64,000 nucleotides of DNA from Elsinoe ampelina (Eukaryota), in assembly GCA_010093995.1 (NCBI GenBank), contig ML992502.1, positions 261,868-325,867 of the forward strand, in the 5' to 3' direction. Shown in pieces: positions 2,044 to 63,890 of the stretch (its first letter is position 1; each line of letters starts with the position of its first letter). The notes under the pieces are model-generated. The model searched no databases and was not told the DNA's origin. It worked only from the letters and a program-made list of their open reading frames with translations. A program made the translations under genes and the position numbers.

Positions 2044-2257
2044 AGGATTGTTTCAAGGGGCTTCAAGTACTCAGTCAAGGTTGAGAGCAGGCCGAATGGT
2101 GTTGTAGAGTACTGTCAGCTCACCGGTTGTGTGGGTTGTTGGTTGTGAAGTCGAGCGAAGCCTGAAGATCTGAAAATCATCGGAACGAAGGCGAGCAGAA
2201 AATTGATCTTATATAATTCGCACACCATCATATGTGCTTGACCTTCGGCGTGAAATT

Positions 2258-4033
2258 ATGCGAAGCAGATTGACACGACTCGGTCGACTATGTGATACAT
2301 CACTGAGCAGATTTGGAAAGCACAGCACGAGTTGTTCCGGCGCAAGATGGAACAGCTCTTCGACAAGGCAATGGTCGACTCCTCTGGCAAAGACGTTGTC
2401 TGAGGTCATCACGGTGGATACAGCCTTCATTTCCAGCTGAAATAGCATTCTGACGATACATAGACAACTGGTCCGATCCCAGTGGCTTCTTACATGCGAC
2501 AATGCTTGACATCAGATCTGGGTGGCTACTATACATCAAAGACACCTGATCGAGATCAGTTCGGCCGCAAAGGAGACTTTGTCACATCGCCAGAGATATC
2601 ACAGATCTTTGGTGAGCTTGTGGGACTATGGATCGTGGCTGAATGGATAGCCCAAGGACGGAAGGACCATGGAGTCTACCTCATGGAGGTTGGACCTGGC
2701 AGGGGAACTCTGATGGACGACGTTATGAGGGTGAATGTATTTGTTGTCGTCACCGGAGTTCCACTAAAATGCATGCAGACAATCAGGAACTTCAAGGATC
2801 TAGTCTCAGCACTTGATGGAGTCTACCTAGTCGAAGCAAGTTCGTCACTTAGGGAAGCTCAGCACAAACTCCTCTGCGGTGACAACGCTTTGACGAAGAC
2901 CGAGACTGGCCATGAGAGTCGCAGCAAGTACGCATCGGATCTACAGGTGAAATGGTGTGAGGATGTACGACTACTCCCGCAAGGTACGTGACACGAACGA
3001 GAGACGTCGTGACAAGTACCTGATGGAAGCAGAATCCGACAAGACGCCATTCATCGTGGCACATGAGTTCTTTGATGCACTTCCAATCCACGTCTTCCAA
3101 TCGATCGCTCCGAATCCTGTAGGAAGTATACAGACCCCTACTGGACCGATAGAAGCGAGGAACATTCCAAGAGCAGCCCAGCACCAGTGGCGTGAGCTAT
3201 TAGTTTCCCCGACCTCGCCATATGCAACACATGCCAGCCTCGGAACACCGAAGAGCTTGCAGGCAGAGCCAGTACCAGAGTTCGAGCTGACACTCGCCAA
3301 AGCAGCCACACCACATTCACTGTACCTGCCTGAACAATCTGAAAGATATCGTAGATTAAAATCGACCAGCAACGCCATCATCGAGGTCAGCCCAGAATCA
3401 CAGACTTATGCAGCCGACTTCGCAGTTCGTATCGGTGGAGGCAAAGTCCCCACACCGAATCCAAACCAGCATGCGCAGTCACATGCCAAACGAGTCTCGC
3501 AGCCTAGGCAAGCGGAGATGATTGAGAAAGCGGAGCCGTTTGGGGCAGCGCTCATCATCGACTATGGTCCAGCCGACACTATTCCAAGCAATTCTTTGCG
3601 AGGAATCAAGGCGCACAAACGAGTCAGCCCATTCACAGAACCTGGAAGAGTGGATCTCAGCGCAGATGTAGACTTCCTCGCTCTTGCCGAGTCTGCACTC
3701 GAAGCTAGTCCTGGTGTCGAGGTTCACGGACCACTAGATCAGGCCCGTTTCTTGACAGCCATGGGAATAGAGGAGCGTGCGACGCAGCTCGTCAAACGCG
3801 CCGTGGACCAGGAGAGAGGAGCCGTGCAATCTGCTCGATCTCAAGATCGGACGAGGACAGATTTGACCGAGATTGTCAAGCGCATAGAAAGTGGATGGAA
3901 GAGACTGGTTGACCGGGGCCCTCACGGAATGGGGAAGCTATATCAGGTCATGGCCATTGTACCTTACAAGTCCAGAGCAGGAGGGCAGCCCATTCGCAGG
4001 CCGGTCGGTTTCGGTGGAGACATCTCGATATAG
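2258..4033 (+). CDS. NDUFAF7: NDUFAF7/MidA mitochondrial protein arginine methyltransferase (DUF185); introns ~2414-2463, 2731-2780, 2984-3032
   Basis: GDFVTSPEISQIFGELVG, EVGPGRGTLM, AHEFFDALP, IIDYG, DLSADVDF; Arg/Ser-rich N-terminal presequence; GT-AG introns restore frame. Confidence 0.9.
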
Positions 4034-4900: not shown

Positions 4901-7900
4901 ATGGCTCCAAGATCGCTGCTAGCTTCACTCGCTGGCGCGGCGGTAGCAGCTGCTGCCGCCATCGATTCGACTCTCATTGCTCGTCAAGCATCTTCAATCG
5001 AGTCGTGTCCAGGATACACCGCATCGAATGTGCAGACAAGCGGGGACAAGATTGTCAGCGCTGACCTGAATCTCGCCGGTCCGGCATGCAATGTCTATGG
5101 GTCAGATTTGGACAACCTTCGTCTGCTCGTAGAGTACCAGTCTCGTTTGTACGCCATGGAATTGGAAGATATACGAGCTAACATGTTCCAGCCGACCGGC
5201 TTCATGTCAAGATCTCCGATGCTGCCAACCAGGTCTACCAGGTTCCGGAATCAGTATGGCCACGACCCGGTGGTGATTCATCAGAGAGCAATCTTGCCTT
5301 CTCCTTGACAGAATCACCATTCTCATTCGCTGTGACTAGAATAAGCAATGGCGAGGTGCTCTTCAATACCTCTGGGTCTCAAGTCATCTTTGAGTCGCAG
5401 TATCTCAGATTGAGGACGAGTCTGCCAGAGAATCCATATTTGTATGGTCTTGGAGAACATACCGACCCTATGAGATTGAACACCACCGATTACCTGCGCA
5501 CGTAAGACAAACTTCGAAATGATCAACTGCTCTTTCTGATGCTGACTTCTGCATAGCATCTGGGCTCGCGACTCGTATGGCATTCCCCCAGGGACCAACC
5601 TATACGGATCGCATCCAGTCTACTATGATCATCGTGGTGATCTTGGGACTCACGCAGTCTTCCTCCTGAATTCCAACGGTATGGATATCAAAATCAACAA
5701 CACGGCTGAGGATGGTCAGTACCTCGAGTACAACACTGTCGGAGGTGTCCTTGACTTCTATTTCCTGGCCGGTCCTTCCCCGAGCAGTGTCGCACGCCAG
5801 TACTCTGAGGTGGTAGGTCTGCCCGCCATGATGCCATACTGGGGTCTTGGATATCACAACTGTCGGTACGGCTACCGCGACGTATACGACGTCGCGGGTG
5901 TTATTGCCAACTACTCTGCCGCAGACATTCCACTAGAGACGATGTGGACCGACATCGACTACATGGACGGCCGTGCCATTTTCACCACCGATCCTCTACG
6001 CTATCCAGTTCCCCTCCTTCGACAGGTGGTGGACTACCTCCATAGCCACGATCAGCAGTACATCATGATGGTCGATCCAGCAGTAGCTGCCAAGGATTAT
6101 CCAACATACAACAGGGGCGTAGATTCGAACGCGTTCCTCCGGACGTCGAATGGTTCTGTATACCTTGGTGTCGTCTGGCCAGGTCCTACCAGCTTCCCAG
6201 ATTGGTTCTCCCCTAATGTGCAAGAATATTGGGATGGCGAGTTCAACGACTTCTTCAACCCAGAAGACGGCATCGACATTGACGGGTTATGGACCGACAT
6301 GAACGAGGCTTCCAACTTTTGTCCATACCCATGCACAGATCCTGTCGGGTTTGCGGAGAGGAACAACAACCCGCCACAGCCTCCGCCAGTTCGTCTTGGT
6401 CCAAACTACCAGATACCCGGATTCGGCCCAGAGTTCCAGCCACAGTGCGTCGCCCGAGTATCCTTCAACGTCGAAGCACAAACATACTTCGGCGAGAACA
6501 TTGCGGTCATCGGAAATGCTATCACGCTTGGTAATGGTGAAGCCCGTAACGCCGCACCGGTCAGCCCTGACAACTATCCTATCTGGAGTGCTGTCATTGA
6601 CCTGCCGCCAAACTCGGAGATATCATACCAGTATGTTAGGCTAGAAGCCGATGGAAGCTATATCTACGAGGCAACCAACAGGACACTTACTACCAGTGAT
6701 TGCAACGGTATGGTCGCAAGCGTGAACGACGTCATTACAACTCAGCAAGGTACACCACCATCTGTAAAGCGAGACACGCCTGTCTTGTCCTACCCCAGCA
6801 GCTTCTCGAAAAGGCAGACTGGCGATCAGACTGGCCTGCCTGGCCGAGACCTGATCAACCCAGCATACAAGATCAACAATGTTGCTGGATCTCTCTCGAA
6901 CTTGACCCTAGACACGGACCTGGTACACAGTAATGGTCTCACCGAGTATGATGTTCACAACTTATACGGTCATACAATGTCTATTGTCAGCCGTCAAGCC
7001 ATGCAGCAACGTCGTGAGGGACTGATGCCCTTGGTGTTGACCCGCTCCAGCTTTCCAGGTACCGGCAAGTATGTCGGTCACTGGTTGGGTGACAACACCT
7101 CCAACTGGGTCAATTACCTACGCTCAATCGGTCAGATGCTTGACTTCATCTCCTTCTTCCAGGTCCCGTATGTTGGCAGCGACGTCTGCGGCTTCATCGG
7201 TGACACCAACGACCTCCTATGTGCCCGCTGGGCTACTCTGGGTGCCTTCTCCCCCTTCTACCGCAACCACAACGCCGACGGCGCCGCCAGCCAAGAGTTC
7301 TATCGCTGGCCCATCGTCGCCTCGGCTGCCCGCAATGCCATCAACACCCGCTACCAACTCCTCGACTACATATATACCGCATTCAAAGCTCAAACTACCA
7401 CTGGCGAGCCAATGATCAAGCCCATGTTCTTCGTCTACCCCGATGAGGCCGACTTCTTCACGGAACAATACCAGTACTTCTATGGCGACGCCATCCTCGT
7501 CGCCCCCGTCACCACCGAAAACTCCACCGTCGGTTCCGTTCGCCTACCGGCCGAGTCCTTGTACTACGATTTCTACACTCACGCTCCCATCCGCGGAACA
7601 GGAGAAGCCATCGTCCTACCAGACGTCCCGTACGATACCATCCCACTCTTCATCAAGGGTGGCAGCATCGTCCCTCTCCGTGCTTCGTCGGCGAATACTA
7701 CCAAGGCACTGCGCGAGCAAGACTTCACGCTGATCATCGCGCCTGATGACGAGGGCAACGCTAGTGGGAGCTTGTACATCGACGACGGAGTCAGTTTGGA
7801 GCAGCCTACCAGCACGCAGATCACGTTCAAGTACTCGAGCGGTCGCTTTGCTATGGACGGTCAATTCGACTACGATGTGGGAGAAGTTGGTATTACGAAA

Positions 7901-8185: not shown

Positions 8186-9669
8186 TCATTCCACTACCAC
8201 CTGCTCTTCCACCCACTCCACCTCCCATTCTTCTACCACCTCTTCGCACACATCCATAGCATCTGTGTCATCCTCCGTGACTCCACCCATCAATTCAGGT
8301 GCCTGGACCCAAGCCTCCTCTACCTGCAAAAGCCACGCCACGCACCTCGCCCGTGTAGCGACCTGCTTCACCTTTCCAACGCAAGTCACGTTCCCAGCAT
8401 CGATCGTAGCCAGCGCTGCTCTACTCAGCAAAACTCCAGAATCTCGCCCGATCATCACGTCTATACAAGTCAGCTACTACCACTCAACTCAGGTCCACCA
8501 CGAAAGCCCTCTCACCATTTCGCCTGAAAGATCGCTTGCGCAATCGACTCCACTCCCTACAATTCCTGATGACAAAGTCAAGCTGCTTCACTTCCGGCAT
8601 GTCATCAGGCAAATGAACCAGACACCCATCCAGACTCCCAAAGTCAATCTCATGGTCTACTAGTGTTAATATCCCTCCCCTTCGACCCTGTCCGCGAAAG
8701 AAGCAACTCACCCGTCCAATGCCTCACCACCCTCGTCCACACCCTCTTCAACCCTTCCCATCCCAGCGGCACAGGCATCGTCGCCATGAGGTTCACCAAC
8801 ATCGGCAGCCGCCACTTTCCCTCCACCAGTCCCACCACCCGTCGGATAGCACTCACGCCCTTACCCAGGTTCAACGCAAACTCCTCTTCTCCCTCCTCGT
8901 CGGGCCCTGCGGACAGACGACCGTATACCGCCCGCAGTCTCCGCGTCATCTGCACCGTACCCAGCTCCTCCTCCCCCCCGACACCCCGGATGAGACCCGG
9001 GCGAAGGTCCGCAATACCCGCCCGCACCAGCTGCTCAGCCGCGAGACACGTGCCATGGCCAGCGACACGCAGCGCGGCTTGGGAGAGGTACGTCCCTTTG
9101 TCCCACCGGGCCACACCTCCGCCTTCGGGAGTGGAGTCGTCAAGGGTACGGATGTCGTCCAGTCTAGCGCCCGGGCTGGGGTCTGGATCGTTGCGAGCGG
9201 AGAGGAGGGTGTTGGCGTTGATGAAGCTCCCCTTGGGCAAGGAGGTAGTGTCGATGATGAAGAGGTTGATCTTTTCCAGATCCTTGTCTTGGGTTTCGAG
9301 GAGATGGGAGATGGTGCGGAGGGCACAGAGGAGGGAGCAGGTCCAGGGGACGAGGGCGCTGGGGCTGTTGGGGCAGGAATTCCGGAGATGCTGGAGGGTC
9401 TCTCTGTAAGCGAAGGAAGGGCCCGGGCGAGAGATGATACTGGTATGGGACGCAGGGGCGTGGGTTGCGGTCGCGTGGGAGGTGGTCCAGGAGAGGTTGG
9501 TGGTGCCCAAGGAGGAAGGTGTGGTGATGCGGAAGAGGTACCGGGGGATTTTGTGCAGGGAGGAAGGTGGATGCTCGGTAGTGGAGCAGGTGGCGAGGGG
9601 GAGATGGGTTTTGGGGTTGTTTGGGGAGGATAGGGTGAGCTTCTCGAAGTGCGTGGTGAGGTCGTCCAT
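8186..9669 (-). CDS. ART-fold-like (DUF7587-type) hypothetical protein, paralogue A; exons 9669-8712, ~8659-8516, 8460-8186
   Basis: IPRYLFR, LVPWTCSL, FIIDT, GTYLSQAAL, LPMLVNL, MPEV motifs shared with the neighbour; introns GTGAGT...TAG and GTGAGA...TAG join three ORFs in frame. Confidence 0.75.
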
Positions 9670-10192
9670 GGTGGCTGGTTGAAGTCGGGTTTGTTCTGCA
9701 GGTAGGGTGGGTCATTGTGGCTGATCTGACTTACATATACGAGGGGCCCCTGTTCCTCACCGGATTGCGTTGGTGTTGTTTGCGAGGACTTGCAGCAAGC
9801 AGCAACTCGTAGCAACCGAGCCACAAACAGGGTAAAACCATGATGACAGGAACACCTACATCCTGCACTCGCCTGAGAGACTTTCCACCTGTCTGTCATG
9901 AAAGCTGCACAGCAGACATGCAGAACGTGGAATGCCGTGCATCGATGATTGGAAAGAGTTTTGGAGATAGAAAGGGTGGCTAAGAAAACAATGAGAGACT
10001 GCATCCCGCACGGCTCATTCATGTGTATACAGCCCCCTTCGAAGTACGCTCCATGCTTTGCTTGATTACATCAGAGACACCGGATTTTGACGTATTCCAA
10101 GGTCACCACCAAGTCCCGGACCGGCCATACATCACACGTGGCAGTTCCCCAAGCTCTCGGAATGCGCAGAAGTCTGTAAACTAGCCTAGCTC

Positions 10193-11540
10193 CTACTCAC
10201 TGCGCGGTAGCGGCAAAAGTCCTTTCTTGGTAGATTCGGCGAGGAAGACTGCTGTGTCGAGGCGTCTGACCGTGGCATCGTGCATTCTTCTGTACATCGC
10301 AGTGTCCGCCACGGCGTCGATCTCTGCATGGACGATCCGGTCGAGGAGAGAGATTCTGGCTCTCCGGATGATGAGCTCGGCTTCACGCAGACAATCTGAA
10401 GGCTTAGTGAGATGGACCTTGTGCCTCACGGGAGTACTTACTCATGCTTTCACCGATGGCGATACGGCACGATATTAGTCTGCTAATGTGCTTCACCTGA
10501 GCTACCTCGGGCAAATGCGCTGGGACGAAGGGGTGCATATTTTGCAGGGTTACGGGGCGCAGATGTGGCTCCACTTTCTCCTGGTAGTTGACCTTGTCAA
10601 CTGGAAATAGCTGTTCGACGGATGTTTCGAGGAGGGGACCACCAAGGAGGCAAGGCATGAGACCAAGTAGATTGGCGACCATTGGTAGGTAAAATCTCCT
10701 GCCGAAGAGGTTGGCAATGTTGTGGATGGCCGCATATTGTTCATCCGTGGTGGTGTTTTGGCTGTACCCAAAGTGGTAGTAGGCTTGTCTCATGCGACAG
10801 ATCTCTTTCGCCAGTCCAGCACTGGAGGAATGATCATCGAGCTCAAGATCGGGTCGAAGGGTGCGCAGGCCGGCGTCGAAAAGATCCCTGGCTGTGACAG
10901 TGGTGCATTTGCCTTGTACGTGCAGAGCGCCGTGAGACAGATACTCCCCATTGTAATAGTGAGCGGGAGGATACTTGCGACATGCGGTGTTTTCCAGGTT
11001 GCAAAAGTTGCTCAGGTCATTGTTGTACTCGCGCAGAGGCCGAGCCAGGTTCATCTCACGAGTGAACGTCCCGGTGGGAAATTCCGCCGTGTCAACTACC
11101 AAGACGGAGATGTCTTCAAGACGCTGTTGATTGCCCTTACGACGGCGCATAACGTGCTGTGCAACGAAAAGGAAAGAGCTCGTCCATGATACGAGATTGT
11201 CGTCCTCTGGCCTACGCCATCTCAAGTGGTCGATCAGCGATTGAGCTGTGGCTTCTCGGTCCTCTCTGTGAAGGAGGTCCTCTGGACCGGCTACTTGTAC
11301 GCCTGGTCTGTCATCTCGATGGTCTCTCTCCAAGTCGCGTAGGTACTGCGCTTTGGACTTGACCCATTGAGTATCCGTCTGCCCGTCGGACGCAGGACAT
11401 GCCACCCGGAACAGATAACGTGGGGGCGGCTCTTGCCCTGGCTGGTGTCTATCAGTATGTCGTGAAGAACCTGTCGAGCTATTGGAAGGTCCAGCCGTCG
11501 GCCCAATGTTCAAGCTGTTGAACTGGACTTCCAAACTCAT
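10193..11540 (-). CDS. ART-fold-like (DUF7587-type) hypothetical protein, paralogue B; exons 11540-10442, 10395-10193
   Basis: PPRYLFR, DNLVSWTSS, VVDT, YYNGEYLSHGAL, LPMVANL, LPEV; intron 10441-10396 GTAAGT...CAG. Confidence 0.8.
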
Positions 11541-12417
11541 GTTGCATGCAGATGACGATCAAAGTCTGGAGATTTTGAAGACAACTAAGTGCTCATGAAG
11601 TGAAAGGATGTCCTACAGGCCCATTTGGACGCCCTTTGCGCAGCTTCATATATGAGTGAACCCCGCTCCTATGCATGGTGATTGTGGCATGGCAATGGCA
11701 ATGATTGGTCCAGGTGTTCGAACACTGTCACACAGACCATGGCGCCGCTTGTTCATTTGCCTGATTTTCTTCTCAAATGTGCCTCAGGACATGCGCGATC
11801 CAGCGAATGTTGTGAGGGTCCGCCAGGCCAAATGGCAGGAGACGTCCGTCCGAGGCAGTAAGCAGGTTCGACAGGATCATGGCGGCGCGGAGAGGTATAG
11901 GTGCTCGATCAAGTCTTCATCGCCCTCAAACGTGACCGAATTCAAGCCACGTGCGGTCCCAATTGTCTGTCAAGCATCTCATATGATGGTTGATGTCAAC
12001 CGATATTGTTGGTCTCATTAACGAAATCGAAAGTTGGAAGTACAGTTCCGTTCTTTGGCTCGAGGTCACGTGCCTCGTCGCGATCCTAGCTTTAGCATTT
12101 CGCGTCTTCAAAACCTTCATATGCAAAGCACACTTGGTGCAGCAGAACACTGCCAATGACCCTTTATCGAAGGTGGCCCCGACGAATCAGCTCATCCGTT
12201 GTCATGGTCTCTTTAGTCCCGGAAAAGTGTCCTAAGCCGATGAAGCTGACCAGTATAAACCCTGAGGCTTGTATAAGATGCATGGAGATGACGAATCACA
12301 GCGTAAGGAAGATTGTTGATCCATATATTCAAGCTCACTCTGGAGCGAATGGGTATCTGATCCACATGTCCCCAAATCGGGGCCAGAACTCCTCGCTATG
12401 CTTGGGCGCGTAGAAGA

Positions 12418-14064: not shown

Positions 14065-16510
14065 ATGCGGCGATCTATCTGGTCTAGACTGCTTTTCACA
14101 AAGACATGTACTGTTCACCGAGAGCTTGAGAAATTAAGACCACGAAAAATCGCATACCCGGCCTACAGCACGTCTTCTATCATGGAAGCCAATATCGACT
14201 CGCCCCCAAAGGCAGGGCAAATCCTGATACATGATGGTCTCGAGTACAATACCATCAAAGAAGGACGAGCATATATTCTGGTACCTCCAGGAGCAAAAAC
14301 TATCACAGATCCAAAAGCTTCCAAGGAGGATCCTGGTGATGCGCAAAAAGTCTTCTACAATCCCATCCAGCAATTCAATCGAGATCTGAGCGTGCTGGCC
14401 ATCCGAGCTTTTTCAGAAGACTTTGAGAGCCGAAGGACGCAACGCAGTAAAGTCGGCCGCAAGGAAAGGCTGCAGCAGAGGAAGCAGAAGCAAAAAGAGA
14501 AGAGAGAGAAGATCGCGGCAGTACTGGACCGAGACGCACTTGCACCAGTCAATGGATCCGAATCGAAAGAGGCCCAAAGTGAGGCCGAAGTCAATCCTCG
14601 AAAGCGCAAGTCCGAGGACGATGCACAAGATGTGGCGACTGAGAAACGACAACGACTAGACGAATCAAACACGACGAACGGTGCCACTGGCCTTCATGAG
14701 CAATCTGAAGTCGGACCAGCGCATACAGAGCCCGCACCGATCGCGAATGGGACAGCTATCGAACCTGCTGCTGCTTCGGCTCTTCCGACCGGTCAAAGGC
14801 CGGATGATAAGCTACGCCCTCACATGCGCATACTCGATGCCTTGTCCGCGACCGGTCTTCGAGCTCTCCGCTATGCTTCAGAACTGCCCGTACCTACTCA
14901 AATCGTGGCAAATGACCTTCTCCCTAAAGCGACTGCCGCGATCAAGCTCAATGCCATGCACAACAAGCTCACGCACGCCATCAAACCCGTGACTTCAAAC
15001 GCCCAAGCTCACATGTACAGTGCAGCATTTGGTTATTCAGAACATGCGTACGGCAAATACGATGTCATAGATCTTGACCCATATGGCAGCGCGGTATCGT
15101 TTCTCGACGCTGCGTTGCTGGCCCTTCAGTCCCCAGGGCTACTCTGCGTGACCTGCACCGATGCAGGCGTCTTCAACAGTCTCGGATATCTCGAGAAGAC
15201 ATATGCACTCTATGGGGGCATTCCCATCAAGGGTTTCCATGCTCACGAAGGAGGACTTCGTCTTATCCTGCATGCCATCGCCACTGCCGCTGCTAAGCAC
15301 GGCTTGACAATCGAGCCTCTCCTCAGTCTCAGTATCGACTTTTACGCCCGCGTCTTCGTACGAGTCCGTCATGCTCCCGTCGAAGTCAAGCATCTCGCCA
15401 GCAAGACGATGCTCGTACACAGCTGCGATCACGGCTGTGGATCCTGGAGTACTCAGTTCATCGGTCGAGCAAAGAAGGTAGACGGAAGAAGAGGTGCCGA
15501 GTTCTGGAAGTTCCAACAATCGCAAACCACAGCCGATAAACTCTGCGAGCACTGCGGCTCCAAGACACACCTCGCCGGTCCAATGTGGGGTGGTCCCTTG
15601 CACAATCCCTACTTCATCGAGCGAATCCTAGGCTACCTCCCCGGTCTCGACCTCGACGTCTACCAAACCACCGAACGCATCGAAGGCATGCTCAGCACCG
15701 CTCTCGAAGAACTCGACGTCATCCCCGGTCTAGACGACACAAGCCTCAGCAAACCCTCCCTCCCTCCCACAAACGGCAAACCCCAACCCTCAAAACCCCA
15801 GGCCCCCGACTCAGCCCCAACCGACCCCCCCTCCCCCTCCCTCCTCACAGGCGACNNNNNNNNNNNNNNNNNNNNNNNNNNNNNNNNNNNNNNNNNNNNN
15901 NNNNNNNNNNNNNNNNNNNNNNNNNNNNNNNNNNNNNNNNNNNNNNNNNNNNNNNNNNNNNNNNNNNNNNNNNNNNNNNNNNNNNNNNNNNNNNNNNNNN
16001 NNNNNNNNNNNNNNNNNNNNNNNNNNNNNNNNNNNNNNNNNNNNNNNNNNNNNNNNNNNNNNNNNNNNNNNNNNNNNNNNNNNNNNNNNNNNNNNNNNNN
16101 NNNNNNNNNNNNNNNNNNNNNNNNNNNNNNNNNNNNNNNNNNNNNNNNNNNNNNNNNNNNNNNNNNNNNNNNNNNNNNNNNNNNNNNNNNNNNNNNNNNN
16201 NNNNNNNNNNNNNNNNNNNNNNNNNNNNNNNNNNNNNNNNNNNNNNNNNNNGGGGGGCAGGGAGGATGGGAAGGTTGATGGGAAGACGGACGGCGAGGGT
16301 ATGGGGAAGGAGGGAAGGGTGAAGGAGGGAGGAGTGAAGGAGGGGAAGAGGGAGGGGAGGATCGAGGGGCAGATTGGGGGAAAGAAGGAGGCGAAGAGGG
16401 AGGTCGTCTTCGATGAGGTGTTGGGCAAGGATAAGCAGGGGAAGAAGTTGACCAGGTATCAGCAGAACCCAAGGGCCAATTGGGGGCCGATGAGCAGAGC
16501 AAAGGGGTAG
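14065..16510 (+). CDS. TRM1: tRNA (guanine-26-N2,N2)-dimethyltransferase; interrupted by assembly gap
   Basis: VFYNPIQQFNRDLS, ILDALSATGLRALRY, IDLDPYGS, CVTCTD, AGPMWGGP; C-terminal YQQNPRANWGP after the gap. Confidence 0.93.
15856..16251. other. Assembly gap (N run)
   Basis: 396 N bases between C-rich and G-rich sequence. Confidence 0.99.
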
Positions 16511-16904: not shown

Positions 16905-18304
16905 TCACCTCACCCCCTTACTCCCCGCACTCTCCCCCACACCCACCACCTCGTCCCTCTCCTCCTGCGTCGTCTCCCCCATCCCCCCTTCCACCTGTCG
17001 CCTCCTCACCGACGCCTCAGTAGACTGACTCTCGCTCCTCTCTCTTGGCCCCGCCACACCAGCCACCGATCCCTGCGCCGCCGCCCAAGCGGAAACATTC
17101 ACACCTCCTGGACCTGCTATCCTTTCCCCTGCCCCTGCCCCTGTGCCGGTACCAAGCACAGAAGCCGGTGTCGAGGCCACTTGTCCAGGAGCGGAGACAG
17201 ACATGGCTTCGCTCGTGCCACTCTCTCTTCTCCTTCGGAGCTGGCGTTCTAAGGCTTTGACTTTCTCTCGTAGCGCCTCGTTCTCAATCTTCACGGTTTC
17301 GAGTTCTTGGCGTGCTTTCTCTGCGTCGATGAAGGATGGGGAGGATATCCCTGGCCCTGGTATGGGTGGCGCGCTTGTTCCACCTCCTGCTCCTGCTAGT
17401 GCGAGCCCTAAGCTCCCTACTGGAGTCCCTGCTGTGGAGGTCGCTGAGCCTGTCCCGCTGCCTTGTGTTGCTGCTGTAGACGCGACGCTGATGCCGCTCA
17501 TGGCGCTGCCTGCGTGGCTGAGTGCTGGGCGGTGGGGGAGGGTGAGCCCGCCTGGTGCATTCGTGTAGCTGTGACTGTACGTGTCTGAGCTGATGCGGGC
17601 GGGAGTACTCGTACCGCTTGCAGAGATGGAAGGATTACGGGAGACGGATGATCTGGTAGTTGCTGCGGCGGCACGGTCGGCGGAGGCTTGGCTTTGACCG
17701 TGAGGTGGAGGGTGGGTAGTGCTTGTGCTGGTAGAATTAGGATTGGTGCCGCTGCGAGAGATGGAGGAGGAAGAGGAGCGGTGCCGGCGGCTGGGAGTGG
17801 GGTGGGTTGGGCCAGTGATTTGGTGGGCGGGATTGGGGTCGGTGGGATCAATGAGGGGAGTCGAGGTGGTGGAGCTGAGGGAGTGGTTGCTGGCGACAGA
17901 GGCGGAGTGCTGGGCTCGTAGGGCGGTAAGCTCGCGAGTAAGGCGATTGACCTGGATTGTTAGTGGTAGGAACGGCTTGAGTGCGGTGAATATCGATTGG
18001 GAGTGTGGTAGGCAATGGTTGAAAGTGTGGTAGGTACAGACTTGGGGAGAGGACATACAACTGCTTCTTGCTCTTTCTCCAGCTCAAGATGGAGCTCTGC
18101 TGCGGTCAAGGGTCGAGGGTGTCGAACGGGCATGCCGTGCTCGCTGTGGGCAAAGACAGGACTGTGGTGCATGGCGGGGCTTGTGCCGGACTGGGCCATG
18201 ACTTGAGAAGGGCGGCGAGAATTGGATGTCGAGGGAGGTTGAGAAGTGCGAACGCGTTGTTGCTGGCGGGGAGAGGAAGGGACAGAGTTGAGATCTGGTG
18301 CCAT
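16905..18304 (-). CDS. Conserved fungal coiled-coil hypothetical protein; intron 18058-17952
   Basis: MAPDLNS...PRPLTAAELHLELEKEQEAV|VNRLTRELTALRAQ; GTATGT...CTAAC...CAG; second coiled coil ELETVKIENEALREKVKALE. Confidence 0.82.
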
Positions 18305-18879
18305 GATTTTGTTGGATCGTGTAGCGATAGTTGGCTTCCGATAGTATCAAGGAGTTTCTGGTAGTCTCAAGGAGTAGCCGCGTTGATGTTTCACTTTGTG
18401 CTTGCCCGTGATGCTAGTTGCAGATGTGTAGAATACAGCGAGTCATCGGCATATAGCTACCAGTAGTGCTCCAAGCATGGTGAGGTACGGTAGAGATCTC
18501 AGGAATAATGTACAAGGGTTGACAGGTGAGGTTCAGAAAGGGCCACTTCACTTCAATGTGGGGAAGCTCGAGCACAAGCTGGGGACTGCTCAGGTCCGAG
18601 GTCTGCACTGTAAACACCTCTGACAGTGAGGGACTGCTGACCGCCATGTTCTGACGGTGTGTGTGCTGGTTGCGACATCGACTTTGTCATTCATCGCAAG
18701 GAAGACTGCCATGCTGATGTCCTGCCTCGGGTCCGCGTCAAATGTCCTGCCTTTCCTAATCTGGGGGGGATGCACAGAAGGCAAAAGGTCACATGGCTAG
18801 GTCCTGCGAGCACCTCCGATCAGAAGTCTTCTTTCTATAATTCGCCTGTCGTTCCTTCTCGTTCGGACAAGGCAGGACA

Positions 18880-20261
18880 ATGGCATCGACAACAACTTGG
18901 CTGATCAGCCAGTGGACTAACCCTCGCGATATCTTCACTGTCCTTCTGATCGTTGGAGGCGACGTGGTGCAACTCGCCATAGCTCAGATATGCGCGGGCC
19001 CTGTGCCATGGCTGGCACCCGTTCCATTTTCCTTTGGTTGGGCAGGTCTCTAGAACTTACTAGGAAGCTTCTGCTGATCATACAGGTGTCGTATGCGATG
19101 ACGGCAACGATGGCCGCCGTGGGTGGAAGACCTCTAATGCCGAAGCCTGAGCTTGACTGTCTGGTCATAAACGCCCACTCTGGTTATTCTCGGAAGAATT
19201 GCTCCTGGGTTCTGTCGCGCATACTCCGCGATTTCGACCATTGGAGACCTGCCATCTGCGACGAGTTAGAGCTTAGGGTGCTTGAGCGATTGCGTTCAGC
19301 CTCTGGTCCTCCACCGGATCAACGCGCTGCCAAGCAGGCGACTGGCACGATATCCAAATTAGACCATGCTAGCGTTATTCGTATAGGACTCCGCATCACG
19401 GTATGGCAGTGCGTAAAAGCAGATGGTGTGGGCATCGGGGACTGGGTGTATTGGACTGGAACTGTCGTGACCATCATTCAAATCGCAATCAGCATCATCC
19501 CGTGGGCCATGTATGATGAGTGGTTTACATTCTTAATTGTCAGTACAGGATCATTCCTAGCGTATACTAGCGCTGGTCTTCCGCAGTGGAGGAAAGAGAA
19601 GGTCGACTGTCGGAAAGCGCCGCCCATAAGAAGGAAAGACATCGTTCTGACAGAGGGTAATGGCTCGAAAGAGGCTGTCTTGTTACTCGGCTGCGATAAT
19701 GGCATGGATCTAGAACACTTTGCTGCTTCTTCAAGGGTTCAAGCTGGATCTGTAGCCTCAAGCGTTACTTCAATCTTGCTCGCAAGCTTCTGGTTATCTT
19801 TGCTCGTTAGTGTTGCTGGCTGGCAGAGGCATACTTGGTACTTACTGAGCATCGGTTTGATCGGTGCTATACACAATCTTGTAGTGGTCGGGATCGCACG
19901 TAACCCAGAAGCTTTCGGCTTGCATTTACGGTACCAAGACACGATAATGGCGCAGCGAGTGATGGAATCATTATGGCACCTTGAAGAGAAACACCCATAC
20001 GCAGGACTCGCGCTCCTCCAAGAATACTTCCCAGGTCCTTTGACCCGGCGAGAAGAGGCACTCTGGGGTTATGCACGCAGACGCGCTGAGGCCCAGAGCC
20101 CACAAGGTATCTCGAAACATAGGTGGGCCATGCCGGCGATGACAGGCGCTTTCACCAGTAGCCTGAGCAGCTATTGCGAGGACATCCCGAAACACGGTCC
20201 ATACCAGACGGAGACCGACCAGAGTTGTGTGAAGTCGACAGGTGCCCAGTCCTCGAGATAG
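18880..20261 (+). CDS. Uncharacterised multi-pass membrane protein (about 5-6 hydrophobic segments); GC-AG intron 19042-19085
   Basis: QWTNPRDIFTVLLIVGGDVVQLAIAQ...PVPFSFGW|VSYA...LMP...SWVLSRILRD...GLPQWRKEK...MDLEHFA...TWYLLSIGLIG; only a GC donor keeps frame. Confidence 0.8.
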
Positions 20262-20333
20262 CTCTTCGATCCTTGGAGCCAGTACTTCGCCGCACAAGTG
20301 TGTAGCCAAAGGTCAGCGGAAATACCCAACTAA

Positions 20334-23300
20334 TTACAGCTTTCGCATTATCACCACGCTCCCCGGTGGCCCGCCTCGGCGTAGCCAAGCAGGAATTCTG
20401 TCTTTTTTGGGTTCCGAGGATGCTTTGTTGAAAGAATCCACCCATTTCTGGAAGCCTGGCCCAAAGAGGTCGATGTAAATTCCACGAGCGGACGAGAGAA
20501 AGCCATAGCCAAATATGAATACAGCACAAGCAACCATGACAGCCCCGAAGCCTTCTCTCGAGACTGTTGAGATGTGTCAGTCTGTGAACATCTGTGGAGG
20601 CACGCAACCTACGACCTGCATTGGAACTCGGGCTATCCGGTTCCCATCCAAGCTTCCGGAGAAATTCATCGCTGCCATGTGGGTTCCTCCCACCCTGATA
20701 GATTGCGAGAAGGGGTATCCCGGTGACAAGCAGGCAGATGGAAAACAACATGCTGATATTCGTGAGTCTCAGCGTTGTCTCTCGATGCAATGGATTACGT
20801 ATCCTGCGCTGATAAATCTGCGAAAGATCGTAGTCATCTATGCAAGTCAGCACCATGCAAGGGGCAATTCTTCAATTGGACTCGCGTTACCGTGATCAAA
20901 ATATATGCGATCGACCTGGTCGGGGAGCGGGCATGCATGCTCAGCAGGTTCTGTAAATTGCGTCTGATGCCGGAAGAACCATTGTTTTCCAGTCCAGACC
21001 CGAAATGAAGTGTCAAACCTGACGACGAAATCTCGTTGATTTCTCTGGACAATACCGTAACGTGCACCTGCTCCCATGCAGCCATGTTGTGATATCATGT
21101 GCGAGAGCTGTATGATGAGCAAGCAAGCGTCTGGCTCACAATCTTCATAGGAATCCCGACGAGCCTCAAGATTGTCCGTGCTAACCGGTACTGTTTCGGT
21201 ACCGTCTGATCTGTTGTGTTCAACGATCAAATCTTTTGATTGAGGCGGTGCACCTGGCAAGGAGATCAAGTAAGTACTGGTGGCAAAAGGTATCTTGGGT
21301 GCGATCATCAACACCATCGTGCTAGCCTCACAATCGGCCAATTTGAGGTACAACCTACTCAATTCTGTGCTTCTGGTCTCGACGTCAGGATATGTATCAT
21401 CCGGCGACAGTCGGACGGGCGTCCAATTCGAGATAGGCTCTCCAGCGATCTCGCTTGGTATCCAGGCATCCTTAGGGGCAAGGTCTCCTCGCGGGACTCT
21501 CTGAGCGATAAACATCAGATCCAATGGGAAAGCACGTAACGAGAGAAGCATTCGAAATAAGCATAGGTGATCTGGCGTACGAAGGACCTCACCAATGTCA
21601 AATTCCAGAAGATGTGCGAAGATCAGAAGCAAGTCCACAGGTCTAGAGGCTGAACGCTGCAAGAGATTGTTCCAAGCCTCTACCACTTGCGTGAAAGTCG
21701 GAAACCCGCCGCTACCGTATCCCTGTCGTCGCCTCTCGAAATTCAATGGTCTTCTAAGCATGAATTTCACGGGCAGCTTGCCAGACGATGTGCTGCTTTG
21801 TTCACCAATTGAAGGACGCCAAGCATGTTTGAGACGAATAAGAAATGGCGTTGGACGATGCAGTGGATCGAGCGCAGCGTTGACTTTGAGTGACCGCTTA
21901 CGGATCCGTCGAAGAACCGGAGTTAGACGCAAGGGCGATACAGCCTCTCCTAGATTCACCAGAGCGGATTCCGCGCCTACGAAGTAGCACCGTGCTGCCA
22001 ATGCGCCCTCTTCTAGCGTCCATGCCCGTTGTAACCATTTGCAGCCGAGTACATGTCCCGCTAACCTTTCGGCCTGATCTTCAATCTCCTGAGCGGACAT
22101 TCTGTCGTGACCGGGTGTTTTCATAGCCAGCAAGGTGAGGTCACTGTCGAGGACAATTACTTGGCGTGCGGCGGTGAAAACCGGAGTTATGTGCCGGATC
22201 GTCCGGAGTCTGAGGTGCTTTGCGTCTTGACCTGGAGGAGCGCGGACAGGGATGCACAAAGTGTCCATCCAGAAGAAAGTCCGGCCCGCTCGTTCTGGTG
22301 AACGCCGTATCGAGACAGCGTTGTATAAACTCTCTGCGTTAGAAGCTTGCGCTTGGCTAATCAGATCAGCCTTCGAAACAAGGCGTGCTATGCGTGTCAT
22401 TTGGCAATGAGGCAACGCGTTGCTTTTTGGATTGCCGAGACCATCACTCCAGACGTGAGATATTGCAGCATATCGTAGCGTGGAGTCGGCTTCATGAAGT
22501 TGCAGATCCAGGTTTGGATCGTTGAGATTGACCGATACCACCGGCATTCGACCACCTTGTATGATCCGGCAAAGATGCTCGATCTGAACAGTGATACTTG
22601 TACAGGAACAGTCTGGATTGACGTGTCGGACCTCGTAAGATCTTTCCTGTTCCTGGCTGAGATCGTGCGCAACGCATTTGCCTTTACTCACGCATCGCGA
22701 GTGATCTGCAAGGTCATCATGCTCTCTGACGATTCTTGAGATGTAACTGACAGAAATGTAATCGCATGCCGCCGCAAGGTAGCGGGCTCTTGTCGGACAC
22801 CAGCCGTTGATCGCGAATCGATGAAGTAATAGGCGTACAGAGAGCGGCACCGGGCCTCTCAAGAGTACCAATTTCCGATAAACTCGGGGTGACATCCATT
22901 GGTAAATCTCTTCCTCTTCTCTCAACGTCTTACGCTTTCCAGACCATATCCGGGATGTGCGATTGTAGGTAATGATTCGTAACGCCGACGATAGGACTAG
23001 GCGCAGACGATTGATGAGCAATCGTATTGTGAGGAGGGTGTAGGCGAAATTAGTCCCCTCGCTGTCTTCAGCCTCATCTGGGAGGGGTCTGTCGACGACA
23101 TCGAACTTGTCCAGTATCAAATCTGCCGAGCACAAGAGCTCCGTAAGACCTCGGTGAGCCGTATGCAGTGCTGTATCCACGAGACCTACGAAGTGGTCCT
23201 TCCAACGACTAATGAAATCATTGAACACGTCTTCTCGTGGAGCAAGCAGCCAACGTCCATGGCTATCCTCAACGTGGATTAGCGAGTCACGTGGGACAAC

Positions 23301-23552
23301 ATGGCCGAGAAATTTGAACAGCAGTCCCCAGATCAGTAGAGCTTGTAAGTAAGATGTCTTTGCGTCTAACGACAATTCTTGAACATGCTCCAACGGTGAC
23401 TCGGCGGTACCCGAAACGAACGGCTCACCATACCGTAGTATGCCTTTGCCCCACTGCAGAGGAGCTCCATTGGGGATGTACTCAAAGACATCAATTGACC
23501 ATGGGATGAAGCATGGGGATGCGTTTGGAGGAGCTGGTAAAATTGTCTCCAT
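20334..23552 (-). CDS. HET-domain (heterokaryon incompatibility) protein with C-terminal TM segments; introns 20890-20838 and probable 20615-20564
   Basis: YAAISHVWSDGLGNP, ALPHCQ, FFWMDTLCIP, VIVLDSDL, WLQRAWTLEEG; N-terminal GWCP...HSRC...C.AH...HV..DCSC Cys/His cluster; splicing adds two hydrophobic helices and removes the apparent overlap with the neighbour. Confidence 0.87.
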
Positions 23553-23951
23553 CGAGGTCCGAGAACCGAAGAGATCGATGAGAGGCGACACGATTGCAAC
23601 ATGCGATGATGCGTTCTTGTGCTGTGAATCAGTGGAAGGCAAAGCGGCTCAAATTCAGCCCCAGTCCCGCTTCGCTAGCCTGAAGGAAGCGTCGCGCGGG
23701 CCCAGGCACTCAGCTCATATCGATCTAGACATTTTGTGACAGCACGAAGTATCACACGTGTCATGCTGTGTTACTGCGGCTGGGATCGACTGTTTCCGGC
23801 ATGTTTATATGGTATCGTGATCTTTCATCCCGACCGCCTGCTCGACAGGCGCCACAACGAACTCAAGCGTCTTGACGAGCCGCAAAGACAAAGCGTCACC
23901 TTTGGCGGCTCATACTCTCTTGCCGTCCACATGACCGAATCCGGACTTCCA

Positions 23952-25482
23952 TCAGTACGTCCTCGCCAGGTTTCTCAAGTACCAATCCACCAACTTTCTG
24001 CCAACCTTGGCTTCCGACACGTGAATCAAATCCTGCGATGTCATTAGTCATTGGACATCAATCGGATCAGAATATAGCTTACCCCTTGCATGGCATAATC
24101 AAGATCGCTTGTGTTCACCACATCGCCGCTGAGAAGACCACCCTCATTGTGCCTAACTTGTCTGCTTCTCTGCTTGTTCACCAGTAGCCAGCTGCGAAGA
24201 GTCTCCGCGTCGACCTCCAAGAACCCAGCGAGCTTCTTCACGTCCATTGTTGTGTAGAGCTTAAGGTAACTCCTGATGGTGGGGCTGAACATGTTATTCT
24301 TCACGTCCTCCATGAAGATGGCCAATTGATGCTCGACTGGATCGCCGTTCTGGTGAGGGTGATCAAAGTCGGGTGGAGTGGGTGAGATGAATTTCGGGCA
24401 CGAAGCGCGGAAGAGCTCCTCGAAGATAGGCAGAGCCTCAGGACCGCCTCGCTGCATGCGGGTGAATTGCTCGCCATACTTCTCCTTGAGTGCGGTGTGG
24501 ATGGTGTCGTCGAGCCTGGTTGGCTGGAAGGCGACGCAAATGGCCACAAGAGCGTACATCTGATCATTCTTCTTCGCGATGTTGTCATACTGCGCATTCT
24601 TCTGGAAGTTCTTCGTCCGAGATACGTAGATGAGGATATGTGTGAACATGCGGATCGCATCGGCGTATCGACCCATCATCATGTAGGAGAAGCCAATGTA
24701 GTAGTATGTGGTGAAGTGAGCTGCCATGACACGGGCGAACATGGCCTTCTTGTTGAGCTCGATATCGTCCAGAGTCTTTAGAGCCAGTGTAAAGTCACCG
24801 AGCAAGCAGTGCACCCTGAGTAGCCCGACGACTGAGAAGTATCCCAGCATTTGGTAGAGTGGCCGCGACCCATACTCTCCAGCGTACAAGCTGGGCTCCT
24901 CATTTCGCTTCTTCGCTGCAAGCTGCTCGCTGATTTGTGATCTTTGGATGAGAGAGTAGAGCACGTTCAAGACGCTGTAGCAGCCCCATGTGTTTGGATT
25001 CTCCCGCAGCACTGTGATATCTTCCTCGTTGTCCTGCTTGATGGCAAGCTTTTGTCTGTAGCTGCAGAAGGTGTTGAACTGGTAGATGAACTCGTCGATG
25101 ACTTCCCATGCCCAGTAGAACTGCTTCATATTAGTTTGAACCTCTCTCTGTACCCTTCTGAACGTACAGATGGCACCTCCAAATCTACAGGTCCATCCGA
25201 ATTGAGGATGTAGTGGAAGAGGTTGCAGTAGCTGTCGTAACTCGCGATCTTTGCTTCCAGGGATGCGCCGTACTCGAGAGGTTGTGCCGCGGCCTGCAAC
25301 TGTGCTTGAAGATCCTGTAACTGTCCTCCTACCGACTGCACATCGATGTCCTGATATTCATCGCCATACTGCACTTGCTGCTGATAATCGTTTGCGAGAG
25401 CCTCCTCTTCTACGTCCGAATCATCGTCAACCAAGCGCTGAGGATCGGCTTGCTGGTAACCAGGACCAGTGCGCAAGCTCAT
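23952..25482 (-). CDS. eIF3L: Eukaryotic translation initiation factor 3 subunit L; introns 25167-25121, 24082-24033
   Basis: WAWEVIDEFIYQF, LGYFSVVGLLRVHCLLGD, CPKFISP, IRSYLKLYTT, terminal DLIHVSEAKVGRKLVDWY. Confidence 0.95.
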
Positions 25483-59740: not shown

Positions 59741-60254
59741 CATGGCCGGATGATGGGCCAAGTCGAGATACCAGAGCCTGCTCCTCTAATAATCTCTGGT
59801 TCTAGTAATCTCTGGACTAGCGTGGTTCGCGAACTCACACTGACAATGAAAGAACCAGGATTGAAAAAGGCGGCCCCCAAGATCTACACTGCGATAATCT
59901 GCAAAAGAGGCACAGTGCCTGCTCCGAACCTCCCCAGAAACCCATGCTGATTGGGTTAAAATTAGGCAGAAGCTAGACCGAACTTGTGATGCTGAACTCC
60001 TACACCAGAAAGTGGCGTCAGCTGAACCTCGCCATCGATCTGGGCCTTCTCCTCTTACGACTTCCAATTGGCTGTTCAACCCCTCTTCGCGCCTTAAGAA
60101 GTGGCCACAGGAGCTGCGTCATAGATTGCACAGCTCCCAAGTCGGACGTGTGAATTTTGCCAAAACCGCCTAAGTTAATCATAATCAGTATGTTCCTTTT
60201 GGCTTTCGTGCCTCTTCATTAGAGATCATACCTTGTAAACCCTCTGCAACTCTG

Positions 60255-63200: not shown

Positions 63201-63890
63201 GCTCTCCAAGCTGCTGCATACAATGGCAATGAGGCTATAGTTAAGCTACTAATCGAGAAGGGCGCCGACGTCAACGCTGAGGGTGGCACTTGCAGCAATG
63301 CTCTCCAAGCTGCTACATTAAGTGGTGACGAGGCTATAGTTAAGCTACTAATCGAGAAGGGCGCCGACGTCAACGCTAAGGGTGGCACTTGCGGCAATGC
63401 TCTCCAAGCTGCTACATTAAGTGGTGACGAGGCTATGGTTAAGCTCCTAATCGAAGAGGGTGCTAACGTCAACGCCGCGGGTGGCTACTATGGCAATGCT
63501 CTCCAAGCTGCTACAGGTCATGAATACGAAGCTATCGTTAAGCTACTAATCGAGAAGGGCGCCAACGTCAACGCTAGGGGTGGCTCCTCTAGTAATGCTC
63601 TCCAAGCTGCCATATATAAAGCCAACGAGGCTATAGTGAAGCTACTGATCGAGAAGGGCGCCGATGTCAACGATAGTGGCATAGATGGCAATGCTCTCCA
63701 AGTTGCTTCATCTCGAGGACACGAAGCTATAGTTAAGCTGCTAATCGAGAAGGGCGCCGACGTCAACGCTAAGGGTGGCAAGTACGGCAATGCTCTCCAA
63801 GCTGCTATATCTCGAAGACACGAAAATTTAGCTAAGCTACTGATCGAGAAGGGCGCTGATGTCAACGCCGAGGGTGACTACGCACAATGA
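60255..63890 (+). CDS. Fungal NLR-like protein: PNP_UDP_1 - NACHT - ankyrin repeats; introns 61294-61345, 62190-62239
   Basis: YTIGWICAL, LLVGIGGG, DIRLGDVVV, CEMEAAG, RGICDYADSHK; Walker A GMAGCGKT, Walker B IVIDAVDEC; GM|FRWVACQ; LAHFSVQEY; about 9 ANK units. Confidence 0.95.
63051..63890 (+). repeat. Ankyrin tandem array with high internal conservation, 99-bp units (one 96-bp, last truncated)
   Basis: Units start at about 63051, 63150, 63249, 63348, 63447, 63546, 63645, 63741, 63840 with ctVatcgaRRaggg...gctctYcaag. Confidence 0.95.

Follow-up and report, generated by a model that had tools for sequence, protein, structure and literature searches.

Whether two genes that face one another across a very short spacer are partners or chance neighbours is the question raised by a locus of the fungus Elsinoe ampelina, in which a gene encoding a HET-domain protein converges on a gene encoding a multi-pass membrane protein. 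The locus occupies positions 18880 to 23552 of a 64,000-nucleotide stretch of contig ML992502.1 (assembly GCA_010093995.1, positions 261,868 to 325,867 of the forward strand; hereafter the window). Few gene families of filamentous fungi are as abundant and variable as that of the HET-domain genes, which recent reviews have called "mysterious players" (PMC10197012, PMC12881547). We find that the family of the membrane protein is encoded directly beside HET genes in several independent lineages, and we consider it likely that the two genes are functionally coupled, the pair probably working together in a way that has not previously been described.

Recurrent adjacency of the membrane-protein and HET genes

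Only the membrane family was used to fetch loci, by means of two peptide patterns taken from a 10-sequence alignment, and 12 of the 181 pattern matches proved to be confirmed relatives, from metagenome sequence. These 12 loci were searched with 120 HET-family proteins (tblastn), and Pfam was run on 123 open reading frames (ORFs) of the seven longest. A HET-family match is present in five of the 12 loci, each time only directly beside the membrane gene (Table 1), and no further HET matches were found in the rest of the loci DNA. Pfam HET confirms four of the five partner genes (L001, L002, L007 and L010), and the visible HET part of the fifth (L011) matches the N-terminal region and first HET block of the family. 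Duplicates were merged (L006 with L007, 99.85%; L008 with L011, 99.6%), L006 extending the L007 locus downstream to a histidine kinase, while L003 (84% to L011) and L005 (78% to L002) are close relatives with almost no flank and L009 has no flank.

With the window included, a HET gene lies beside the membrane gene in six independent lineages, HET genes occupy 6 of the 12 visible immediate-neighbour slots, and no lineage with both sides visible lacks a HET neighbour. The binomial probability of filling 6 of 12 slots with HET genes is 2.6e-9 if these make up 1.2% of genes, 5.3e-8 at 2% and 1.1e-5 at 5%, where the HET share of genes is our own estimate, derived from the 125 HET loci reported for Podospora anserina and the 52-73 reported for Neurospora crassa (PMC10197012, PMC2988816). 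Enrichment of the membrane family in the neighbourhood of HET genes had been set beforehand as the test on which the idea of a functional two-gene module could fail, and the recurrent adjacency found here supports such a module.

The arrangement of the pair varies among lineages, being convergent in the window and in one metagenome locus (L010), divergent in three (L001, L002, L011) and tandem in one (L007). The outer flanks differ as well, and comprise eIF3L, a class II tRNA synthetase together with Brix, a histidine kinase, and FGGY together with a Zn2Cys6 factor. Since these flanks are unrelated housekeeping genes, the pairs do not go back to a single ancestral block of synteny, nor do they lie in an accessory island, and comparison of the loci indicates that the pair is kept adjacent through rearrangements.

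Two side observations concern individual loci. In L001, an ORF at 6391-6906 on the minus strand encodes three strongly hydrophobic segments; on the strand of the HET gene, it follows the last recognisable exon of that gene after approximately 360 bp, and may represent either extra C-terminal membrane exons of it or a small membrane gene in its own right. In L010, a Sir2-family (NAD-dependent) gene at 2460-3611 on the minus strand lies approximately 5 kb from the pair, which is probably a coincidence.

A conserved and a variable partner

The HET domain is the sole part common to the partner HET proteins. Those of L001 and L011 possess a long N-terminal domain, that of L010 is a short form which begins approximately 80 residues before the HET domain and has no N-terminal domain, and that of L002 is of another subtype (E 0.002 in comparison with the HET protein of the window). 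Judged by these comparisons, it is the HET domain itself with which the membrane family is associated. Among the five lineages compared, membrane proteins are 29-58% identical to one another whereas HET partners are only 21-35% identical, which makes the membrane component the more conserved of the two and the HET component the more variable.

We found no fused HET-membrane form: the best match of the membrane-family hidden Markov model (HMM) among 120 HET proteins has E 0.73, and the best 150 members of the membrane family span 232-613 amino acids (aa), so that none of these is of the size of a HET protein. A complex prediction of HET residues 310-890 with membrane-protein residues 1-395 returned a score of 0.00, for which controls were not run and which counts neither way.

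Gene models and transcription

Contigs of four public sequencing runs (X1-X4), originating from two studies, were aligned to positions 18700-23700. Over the pair they contain four spliced joints with canonical ends and intron sizes typical of fungi, and because of these joints the contigs derive from RNA, although the runs themselves carry no RNA label on record. Both genes of the pair are transcribed and spliced in runs of the two studies. An initial reading made from the sequence alone (hereafter the sequence-only reading) had proposed convergent genes for a HET protein of about 1000 aa and a membrane protein of about 445 aa, with some 72 bp between their stops; the RNA contigs confirm both models, at 1038 and 445 aa respectively, and the spacer measures exactly 72 bp (Table 1). 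The first hydrophobic helix (aa 18-37) is encoded by exon 1 of the membrane gene, as is the beginning of the second. The N-terminus of the protein is conserved in the homologues P0006, P0007, P0016 and P0018, and the spliced reading agrees with homologues across the junction at 19042-19085.

Two public gene models exist for the locus, both from Elsinoe ampelina, and the 3' ends of both (20334-20890 for the HET gene; 20100-20261 for the membrane gene) look wrong. The model of the membrane gene (P0001) is a 432-aa hypothetical protein, 96% identical to the plus-strand ORF, with a 39-nt intron near its 3' end for which the RNA contigs contain no joint, and homologues align through this stretch. 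The model of the HET gene (P0020) is a 911-aa protein annotated as a heterokaryon incompatibility domain protein, which uses a different donor at HET intron 1 and ends in a 22-aa tail, and in which two C-terminal hydrophobic helices (aa 915-934 and 969-985) are consequently lost. A tblastn search yielded no homologue support for the C-terminal exons of the HET gene (matches there have E >= 0.34), and it is the joints in the RNA contigs that settle the model of this region.

Within the spacer, the two transcripts overlap at their 3' ends. In addition, a spliced antisense transcript crosses the 3' half of the membrane coding sequence (CDS), its contigs extending over 19498-20613; at its intron (Table 1), one X3 contig is unspliced. 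As this intron lies approximately 490-540 nt past the HET stop, either the HET mRNA has a long 3' untranslated region or a separate antisense RNA is present. The antisense transcript could couple the expression of the HET and membrane genes. A single synonymous nucleotide polymorphism (SNP; position 22364, Leu397) separates the RNA contigs of the second study from the assembly over the parts covered, a comparison of two isolates only.

The membrane protein and its family

Six hydrophobic helices are predicted in the membrane protein, of which those at aa 174-197, 201-217, 277-298 and 304-323 form the transmembrane core encoded by exon 2. In the AlphaFold2 (AF2) model (pLDDT 77.7, pTM 0.76) two N-terminal hydrophobic helices are followed by two transmembrane hairpins (aa 174-217 and 277-323) with turns of 3 and 5 residues, and beta strands are contributed by three long loops. 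These loops (aa 66-173, 218-276 and 324-445) contain 16, 10 and 14 Lys/Arg residues respectively and, in the model, appear to form one soluble alpha/beta domain, for which the positive-inside rule suggests a cytosolic location. Seven residues (D173, Q186, W200, Q221, E225, G245 and N246) are invariant in an alignment of 19 family members (A1), and the invariant residues sit in this composite loop domain and inside helices (D173, Q186). The four peptide motifs quoted for the protein in the sequence-only reading are found at aa 26-36, 50-57, 94-103 and 219-226.

A word-based search returned 19 relatives, from Dothideomycetes and Mycena, the nearest of which (besides the protein itself) is about 50% identical. 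Among the homologues recovered in this way are M433DRAFT_149142 of Acidomyces richmondensis, LTR15_009398 and LTS10_001187 of Elasticomyces elasticus, AUEXF2481DRAFT_39077 of Aureobasidium subglaciale, and B0H11DRAFT_1963011 and DFH08DRAFT_898856 of Mycena. In contrast to this small number, an hmmsearch of 1.84 billion representatives with the family profile yielded 1234 clusters (formed at 50% identity) with E <= 0.001, 497 of them with E <= 1e-30, and the protein of the window ranks first with a full-length profile match. Its neighbours in the ESM Atlas are 100% eukaryotic clusters, mostly from Ascomycota and without a common Pfam family; the nearest 'named' clusters fall below the 0.9 lead level, and no named family was recovered there. 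Pfam assigns no family to the protein, and none above cut-off to 25 longer relatives (DUF998 is sub-threshold, at 22.6 bits against 30). Similarly, a sequence-profile search of the PDB gave one match (E 0.33), scans of genome contigs and viral contigs returned no relatives of the family, and PADLOC found 0 families at E <= 1 for P0001, P0007, P0016 and P0020. The family to which the membrane protein belongs is large and unnamed, is found mainly in Ascomycota, and lacks both a Pfam entry and a clear counterpart among solved folds. That no characterised system includes this family, as had been supposed at the outset, agrees with the results from Pfam, PADLOC and the Atlas, and neither the family nor a conserved HET-membrane pairing is described in the literature searched (CC-licensed PMC papers and bioRxiv, without supplements).

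The HET protein

The HET protein consists, in order, of an N-terminal helical domain, a Cys/His cluster, the HET domain and a C-terminal alpha/beta region. Pfam HET (PF06985) matches with 33.2 bits (cut-off 22.5; E 7.9e-08) over profile positions 1-146 of 146, and the same label is precomputed on P0020. The numbering of this match refers to a reading frame that begins 32 residues before the Met; with the Met as residue 1, the domain spans aa 361-515. Its three conserved blocks lie at aa 363-375, 427-435 and 509-516, and the positions S365-P375, W428-P435, W506, R509, W511 and E515 are invariant in 39 homologues. Conserved blocks of this kind, including the acidic residue of the last block, define the HET domain. 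Directly upstream of the domain, the Cys/His cluster (Table 1) is possibly an undescribed module particular to this HET subfamily, with a putative role in metal binding.

Two hydrophobic segments lie near the C-terminus, in the exons that the public annotation misses (Table 1), and a hydrophobic segment within the last 200 aa is found in 39 of the 120 homologues listed (of 185 matches), mostly in proteins of at least 950 aa. Both products of the pair had been predicted to be membrane-bound in the sequence-only reading, and this prediction is supported: six hydrophobic helices are predicted in the membrane protein, and the two C-terminal segments of the HET protein are confirmed by RNA against the public annotation. 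In the AF2 model of the HET protein, which is a confident one (pLDDT 76.9, pTM 0.80), the N-terminal domain is helical, the HET core is alpha/beta and the C-terminal region is rich in beta structure. Fold searches used the whole protein; Foldseek gave no match at E <= 0.001 for this whole model, and the best VIA match (Z 7.4) falls on the N-terminal helices. The nearest relative of the HET protein besides itself is about 32% identical (word-based search).

Table 1 Coordinates of the paired genes in the window, and of the membrane and HET genes in the metagenome loci where the two adjoin (positions are those of the window or of the locus named)
Feature	Position	Strand	Evidence or arrangement
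Membrane-protein CDS, 445 aa	18880-19041 + 19086-20261	+	
Membrane gene exon 1, aa 1-54	18880-19041	+	ATG at 18880; exon joint in X1 and X3 contigs
Membrane gene intron (its only one), 44 nt, GC-AG	19042-19085	+	Joint 19040/19085 with 2 letters of slack; GCAGGT..ATACAG; X1, X3
Membrane gene exon 2 and stop, aa 55-445	19086-20261	+	Open frame; homologue alignment; AF2 model
Antisense-transcript intron, 48 nt, within membrane CDS	19798-19845	-	Joint 19797/19846; CT..AC on plus strand, GTAAGT..AAAG on minus strand; X1, X2
Spacer between stop codons, 72 bp	20262-20333		CDS ends; spanned by RNA contigs
HET CDS, 1038 aa	23552-20891 + 20837-20613 + 20563-20334	-	ATG at 23552
HET gene exon 3 and TAA stop	20334-20563	-	Joint 20563/20613 in X1, X2, X3
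HET stop codon	20334-20336	-	
HET C-terminal hydrophobic segment, aa 969-985 (exon 3)	20496-20546	-	
HET gene intron 2, 49 nt, GT-AG	20564-20612	-	GTAGGT..CAACAG; X1, X2, X3
HET gene exon 2	20613-20837	-	RNA contigs and frame
HET C-terminal hydrophobic segment, aa 915-934 (exon 2)	20698-20757	-	
HET gene intron 1, 53 nt, GT-AG	20838-20890	-	Joint 20837/20891 in X1, X2, X3; GTAACG..GCATAG
HET gene exon 1, aa 1-887 and one base	20891-23552	-	100% identity to P0020; AF2 model
HET (proposed TIR-like) domain, aa 361-515	22008-22472	-	Pfam PF06985 and invariant columns, 39 homologues
Cys/His cluster (C252, H284, C287, C293, H310, C317)	22602-22799	-	Invariant in alignment A3, 39 sequences
L001, membrane gene; HET gene	10001-11398; 9714-7265	+; -	Divergent
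L002, membrane gene; HET gene	2356-3686; 2134-44	+; -	Divergent
L007, membrane gene; HET gene	2231-3622; 3-1665	+; +	Tandem
L010, membrane gene; HET gene	8347-10026; 11308-10173	+; -	Convergent, as in the window
L011, membrane gene; HET gene	from 1543; 1091-3	+; -	Divergent

A candidate mechanism and its alternatives

A potential explanation for the recurrent pairing is that the two genes form a regulated-cell-death or immune module of filamentous fungi, and the functional steps, topology and order of action of the partners given here are those that we infer. The HET protein would be tethered to the membrane by its C-terminal two-helix hairpin, with the rest of the protein in the cytosol, and would act as a fast-evolving sensor and signal generator. 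The slowly evolving six-helix protein would be its dedicated downstream partner in the same membrane, and most likely the executor: activation of the HET domain would lead it to alter ion flux or the permeability of the membrane, either through direct contact or through a product of HET enzymatic activity. We favour this direction, from HET sensor to membrane effector, because a variable, sensor-like gene stays beside a conserved membrane gene, which follows the logic of known two-gene modules, and we hold it as a tentative reading that has a fair amount to be said on either side. HET-E of N. crassa is reported to fractionate with endomembranes (PMC4540973).

Several observations weigh against the sensor-effector reading, or limit the adjacency on which it draws. 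The adjacency sample comprises six lineages (the window and metagenome loci) from one peptide-pattern scan that favours close relatives, in a family of 1234 clusters, and a search with the L002 HET partner returned seven proteins, none of them from Elasticomyces. In L004 the visible neighbour is an upstream lipase, and in L012 it is a downstream 315-aa coiled-coil ORF without a Pfam match, the other side being cut off in both loci. In some partner HET genes no C-terminal anchor can be seen, and the identities of the two partners gave no sign of the co-phylogeny that the sequence-only reading had proposed to look for (Spearman -0.52; 10 pairs, 5 loci). A sensitive blastp comparison found no motif common to the two proteins of the window (best E 1.1, over 21 aa). 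No ligand-binding, pore or enzyme fold is recognisable in the membrane model either, as Foldseek found nothing in the PDB at E <= 0.001 and the best match of a wide VIA search (Z 5.8) is a 47-residue helical piece. Finally, an obligatory dedicated effector is not required, since the HET domain alone is reported to kill when over-expressed (PMC2988816, PMC10197012).

A more specific form of the sensor-effector reading would make the pair a eukaryotic counterpart of bacterial TIR systems, in which the tethered HET protein makes a NAD-derived signal upon encountering non-self or damage, and the cytosolic domain of its partner binds this signal and opens or assembles a killing pore. In the sources cited here, HET is proposed to be a distant relative of TIR, cell death is attributed to HET alone, and the biochemistry of the domain is listed as undetermined (PMC12881547, PMC10197012). 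We regard this version as improbable; if true, the HET domain would gain a long-missing biochemical output as well as a dedicated, family-wide executioner.

The main alternative to an effector role, which we judge to be unlikely, is that the membrane protein is a restraint or antidote that holds its cognate HET protein inactive at the membrane, in the manner of a guardee or antitoxin, such that its loss, modification or mismatch would release death. Tight linkage, whatever the orientation, is a requirement of poison-antidote and guard pairs and is seen here; moreover, both proteins are predicted to lie in the membrane with their bulk in the cytosol, and reciprocal regulation would be possible through the overlapping, convergent transcription and the antisense transcript of the window. 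Given that the HET domain is reportedly sufficient for death (PMC2988816, PMC10197012), a partner would also be needed more for control than for killing. However, an inhibitor of a fast-evolving protein is expected to co-vary with it, whereas the membrane protein is conserved and shows no co-phylogeny, it pairs with two different HET subtypes, and the invariant polar residues within its transmembrane helices suggest an activity of its own.

It is quite unlikely, in our view, that the genes are not coupled at all, their adjacency being due to inherited microsynteny, co-duplication or a common preference for a genomic niche. HET genes are numerous and are described as non-randomly distributed (PMC10197012), six lineages from one scan form a small basis, and with neither co-phylogeny nor a common motif it is position alone that ties the genes together. 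Yet the three orientations, the unrelated housekeeping flanks and the two HET subtypes argue against both inherited synteny and island clustering, the rest of the window and loci contain no other HET match, and the probability of a chance association is about 1e-5 or lower even if 5% of genes are HET genes.

An allorecognition (het/vic) locus of the het-c/pin-c type, as envisaged in the sequence-only reading, in which a linked HET protein recognises polymorphic membrane alleles and mismatch kills fused cells, is very unlikely: precedents exist in het-c beside pin-c and the linked het-6/un-24 (PMC2988816), the HET gene is tightly linked to an unrelated partner, and nearest relatives of only about 50% (membrane) and 32% (HET) identity would fit a patchy, fast-turnover locus, but the adjacency of het-c and pin-c is lineage-specific whereas this pairing recurs across lineages that are 29-58% identical, the membrane protein is the more conserved partner, its many invariant residues suggesting purifying rather than diversifying selection, co-phylogeny is absent, the two isolates compared differ by one synonymous SNP in the parts covered, the partner has no Het-C Pfam match (nor do its 25 relatives above cut-off), and only about 5 of the 125 HET genes of P. 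anserina are reported as het loci (PMC10197012).

If the sensor-effector reading, or any other form of coupling, is borne out, this unnamed membrane family, conserved and kept beside HET genes through rearrangements, would offer a first candidate at family level for the interlocutor of the HET domain, and the question of how HET kills or is controlled would become a two-gene experiment. Independently of function, our analysis defines a large fungal membrane family and corrects two public gene models, in one case changing a protein annotated as soluble to one that is predicted to be membrane-anchored.

Genomic setting of the pair

The surroundings of the pair are ordinary housekeeping genes (Pfam on 43 ORFs), with Rpc31 and TRM1 upstream and eIF3L/Paf67 and CN-hydrolase downstream, and the 64-kb window contains no second HET-family match besides the HET gene of the pair. 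The pair had been thought to sit between two conserved genes, which is correct on one side, where eIF3L/Paf67 (24047-25357) is the sole clearly conserved flank, but not on the other, which is occupied by a Ser/Thr-rich ORF without a Pfam family (16908-18083). A suggestion that codon usage in the pair is less GC-biased than in its neighbours is weakly borne out, as GC content at third codon positions (GC3) is 0.517 in the HET gene and 0.558 in the membrane gene, against a mean of 0.605 (standard deviation 0.074, minimum 0.524) in 18 Pfam-bearing ORFs of the window.

A second immune-type gene lies in the window approximately 37 kb from the pair, at 60174-63887 on the plus strand, and is a fungal gene of the NOD-like receptor (NLR) type that combines a PNP_UDP phosphorylase with NACHT/NPHP3_N and ankyrin repeats; its GC3 is similarly low (0.52-0.55). 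Elsewhere, DUF7587 is matched by two adjoining ORFs on the minus strand (8653-9711 and 10407-11558; E about 2e-07 to 3e-07), which appear to be a tandem pair of paralogues. A run of N starts at 15856 (406 N in total in the window), and the apparent dip in GC to 0.365 at 15500-16499 is therefore not a feature of composition.

Comparison with known systems

Several described fungal systems resemble the pair in part. Adjacent genes for a sensor and a membrane-targeting executioner occur in filamentous fungi in NWD2/HET-S and in the gasdermin/protease pair HET-Q1/HET-Q2, but signalling there is described as proceeding through a common amyloid motif or proteolysis (PMC10197012), whereas the two proteins considered here possess no common motif and neither is an NLR, HeLo, gasdermin or protease by Pfam. 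Tight linkage of a HET gene to an unrelated partner is also reported for het-6/un-24 of N. crassa, vic6/pix6 of Cryphonectria parasitica and het-B (Bh/Bp) of P. anserina (PMC2988816, PMC10197012, PMC10890737). Their partners (a ribonucleotide reductase subunit, pix6 and a PII-like protein) are, however, system-specific and polymorphic; they do not include a member of this membrane family, nor has any of them been reported to be a conserved neighbour across a family.

A resemblance in gene content exists with het-c/pin-c of N. crassa, in which the gene for a HET protein of approximately 900 aa adjoins that of an unrelated membrane protein and the two have a joint role in death (PMC2988816). The partner in the window is nevertheless a six-helix protein of another family, without a Pfam match. 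Furthermore, as described in that source, the adjacency of het-c and pin-c is unique to Neurospora/Sordaria and the membrane partner is hypervariable (PMC2988816), whereas here the adjacency recurs in divergent lineages and the membrane partner is conserved. PIN-C is also described as cytoplasmic, unlike the HET protein of this pair, which has a predicted membrane anchor.

A likeness in logic only exists with bacterial type II Thoeris, where ThsB, a TIR signal generator, is encoded beside the membrane effector ThsA, which carries a cytosolic sensing domain. According to the portion of the report cited here, the TIR enzyme makes His-ADPR, which activates ThsA, a two-helix membrane/Macro effector (10.1101/2024.01.03.573942). 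We found no relation in sequence or fold between the two systems (no Macro or SLOG by Pfam, and 0 PADLOC families for the four proteins searched), NADase activity or signal production is given as undetermined for any HET domain (PMC12881547), and the pair described here consists of eukaryotic, monocistronic genes. The organisation of type II Thoeris is nonetheless one of variable sensors beside a conserved effector (10.1101/2024.01.03.573942), and the same pattern of adjacency is seen in the HET-membrane pairs.

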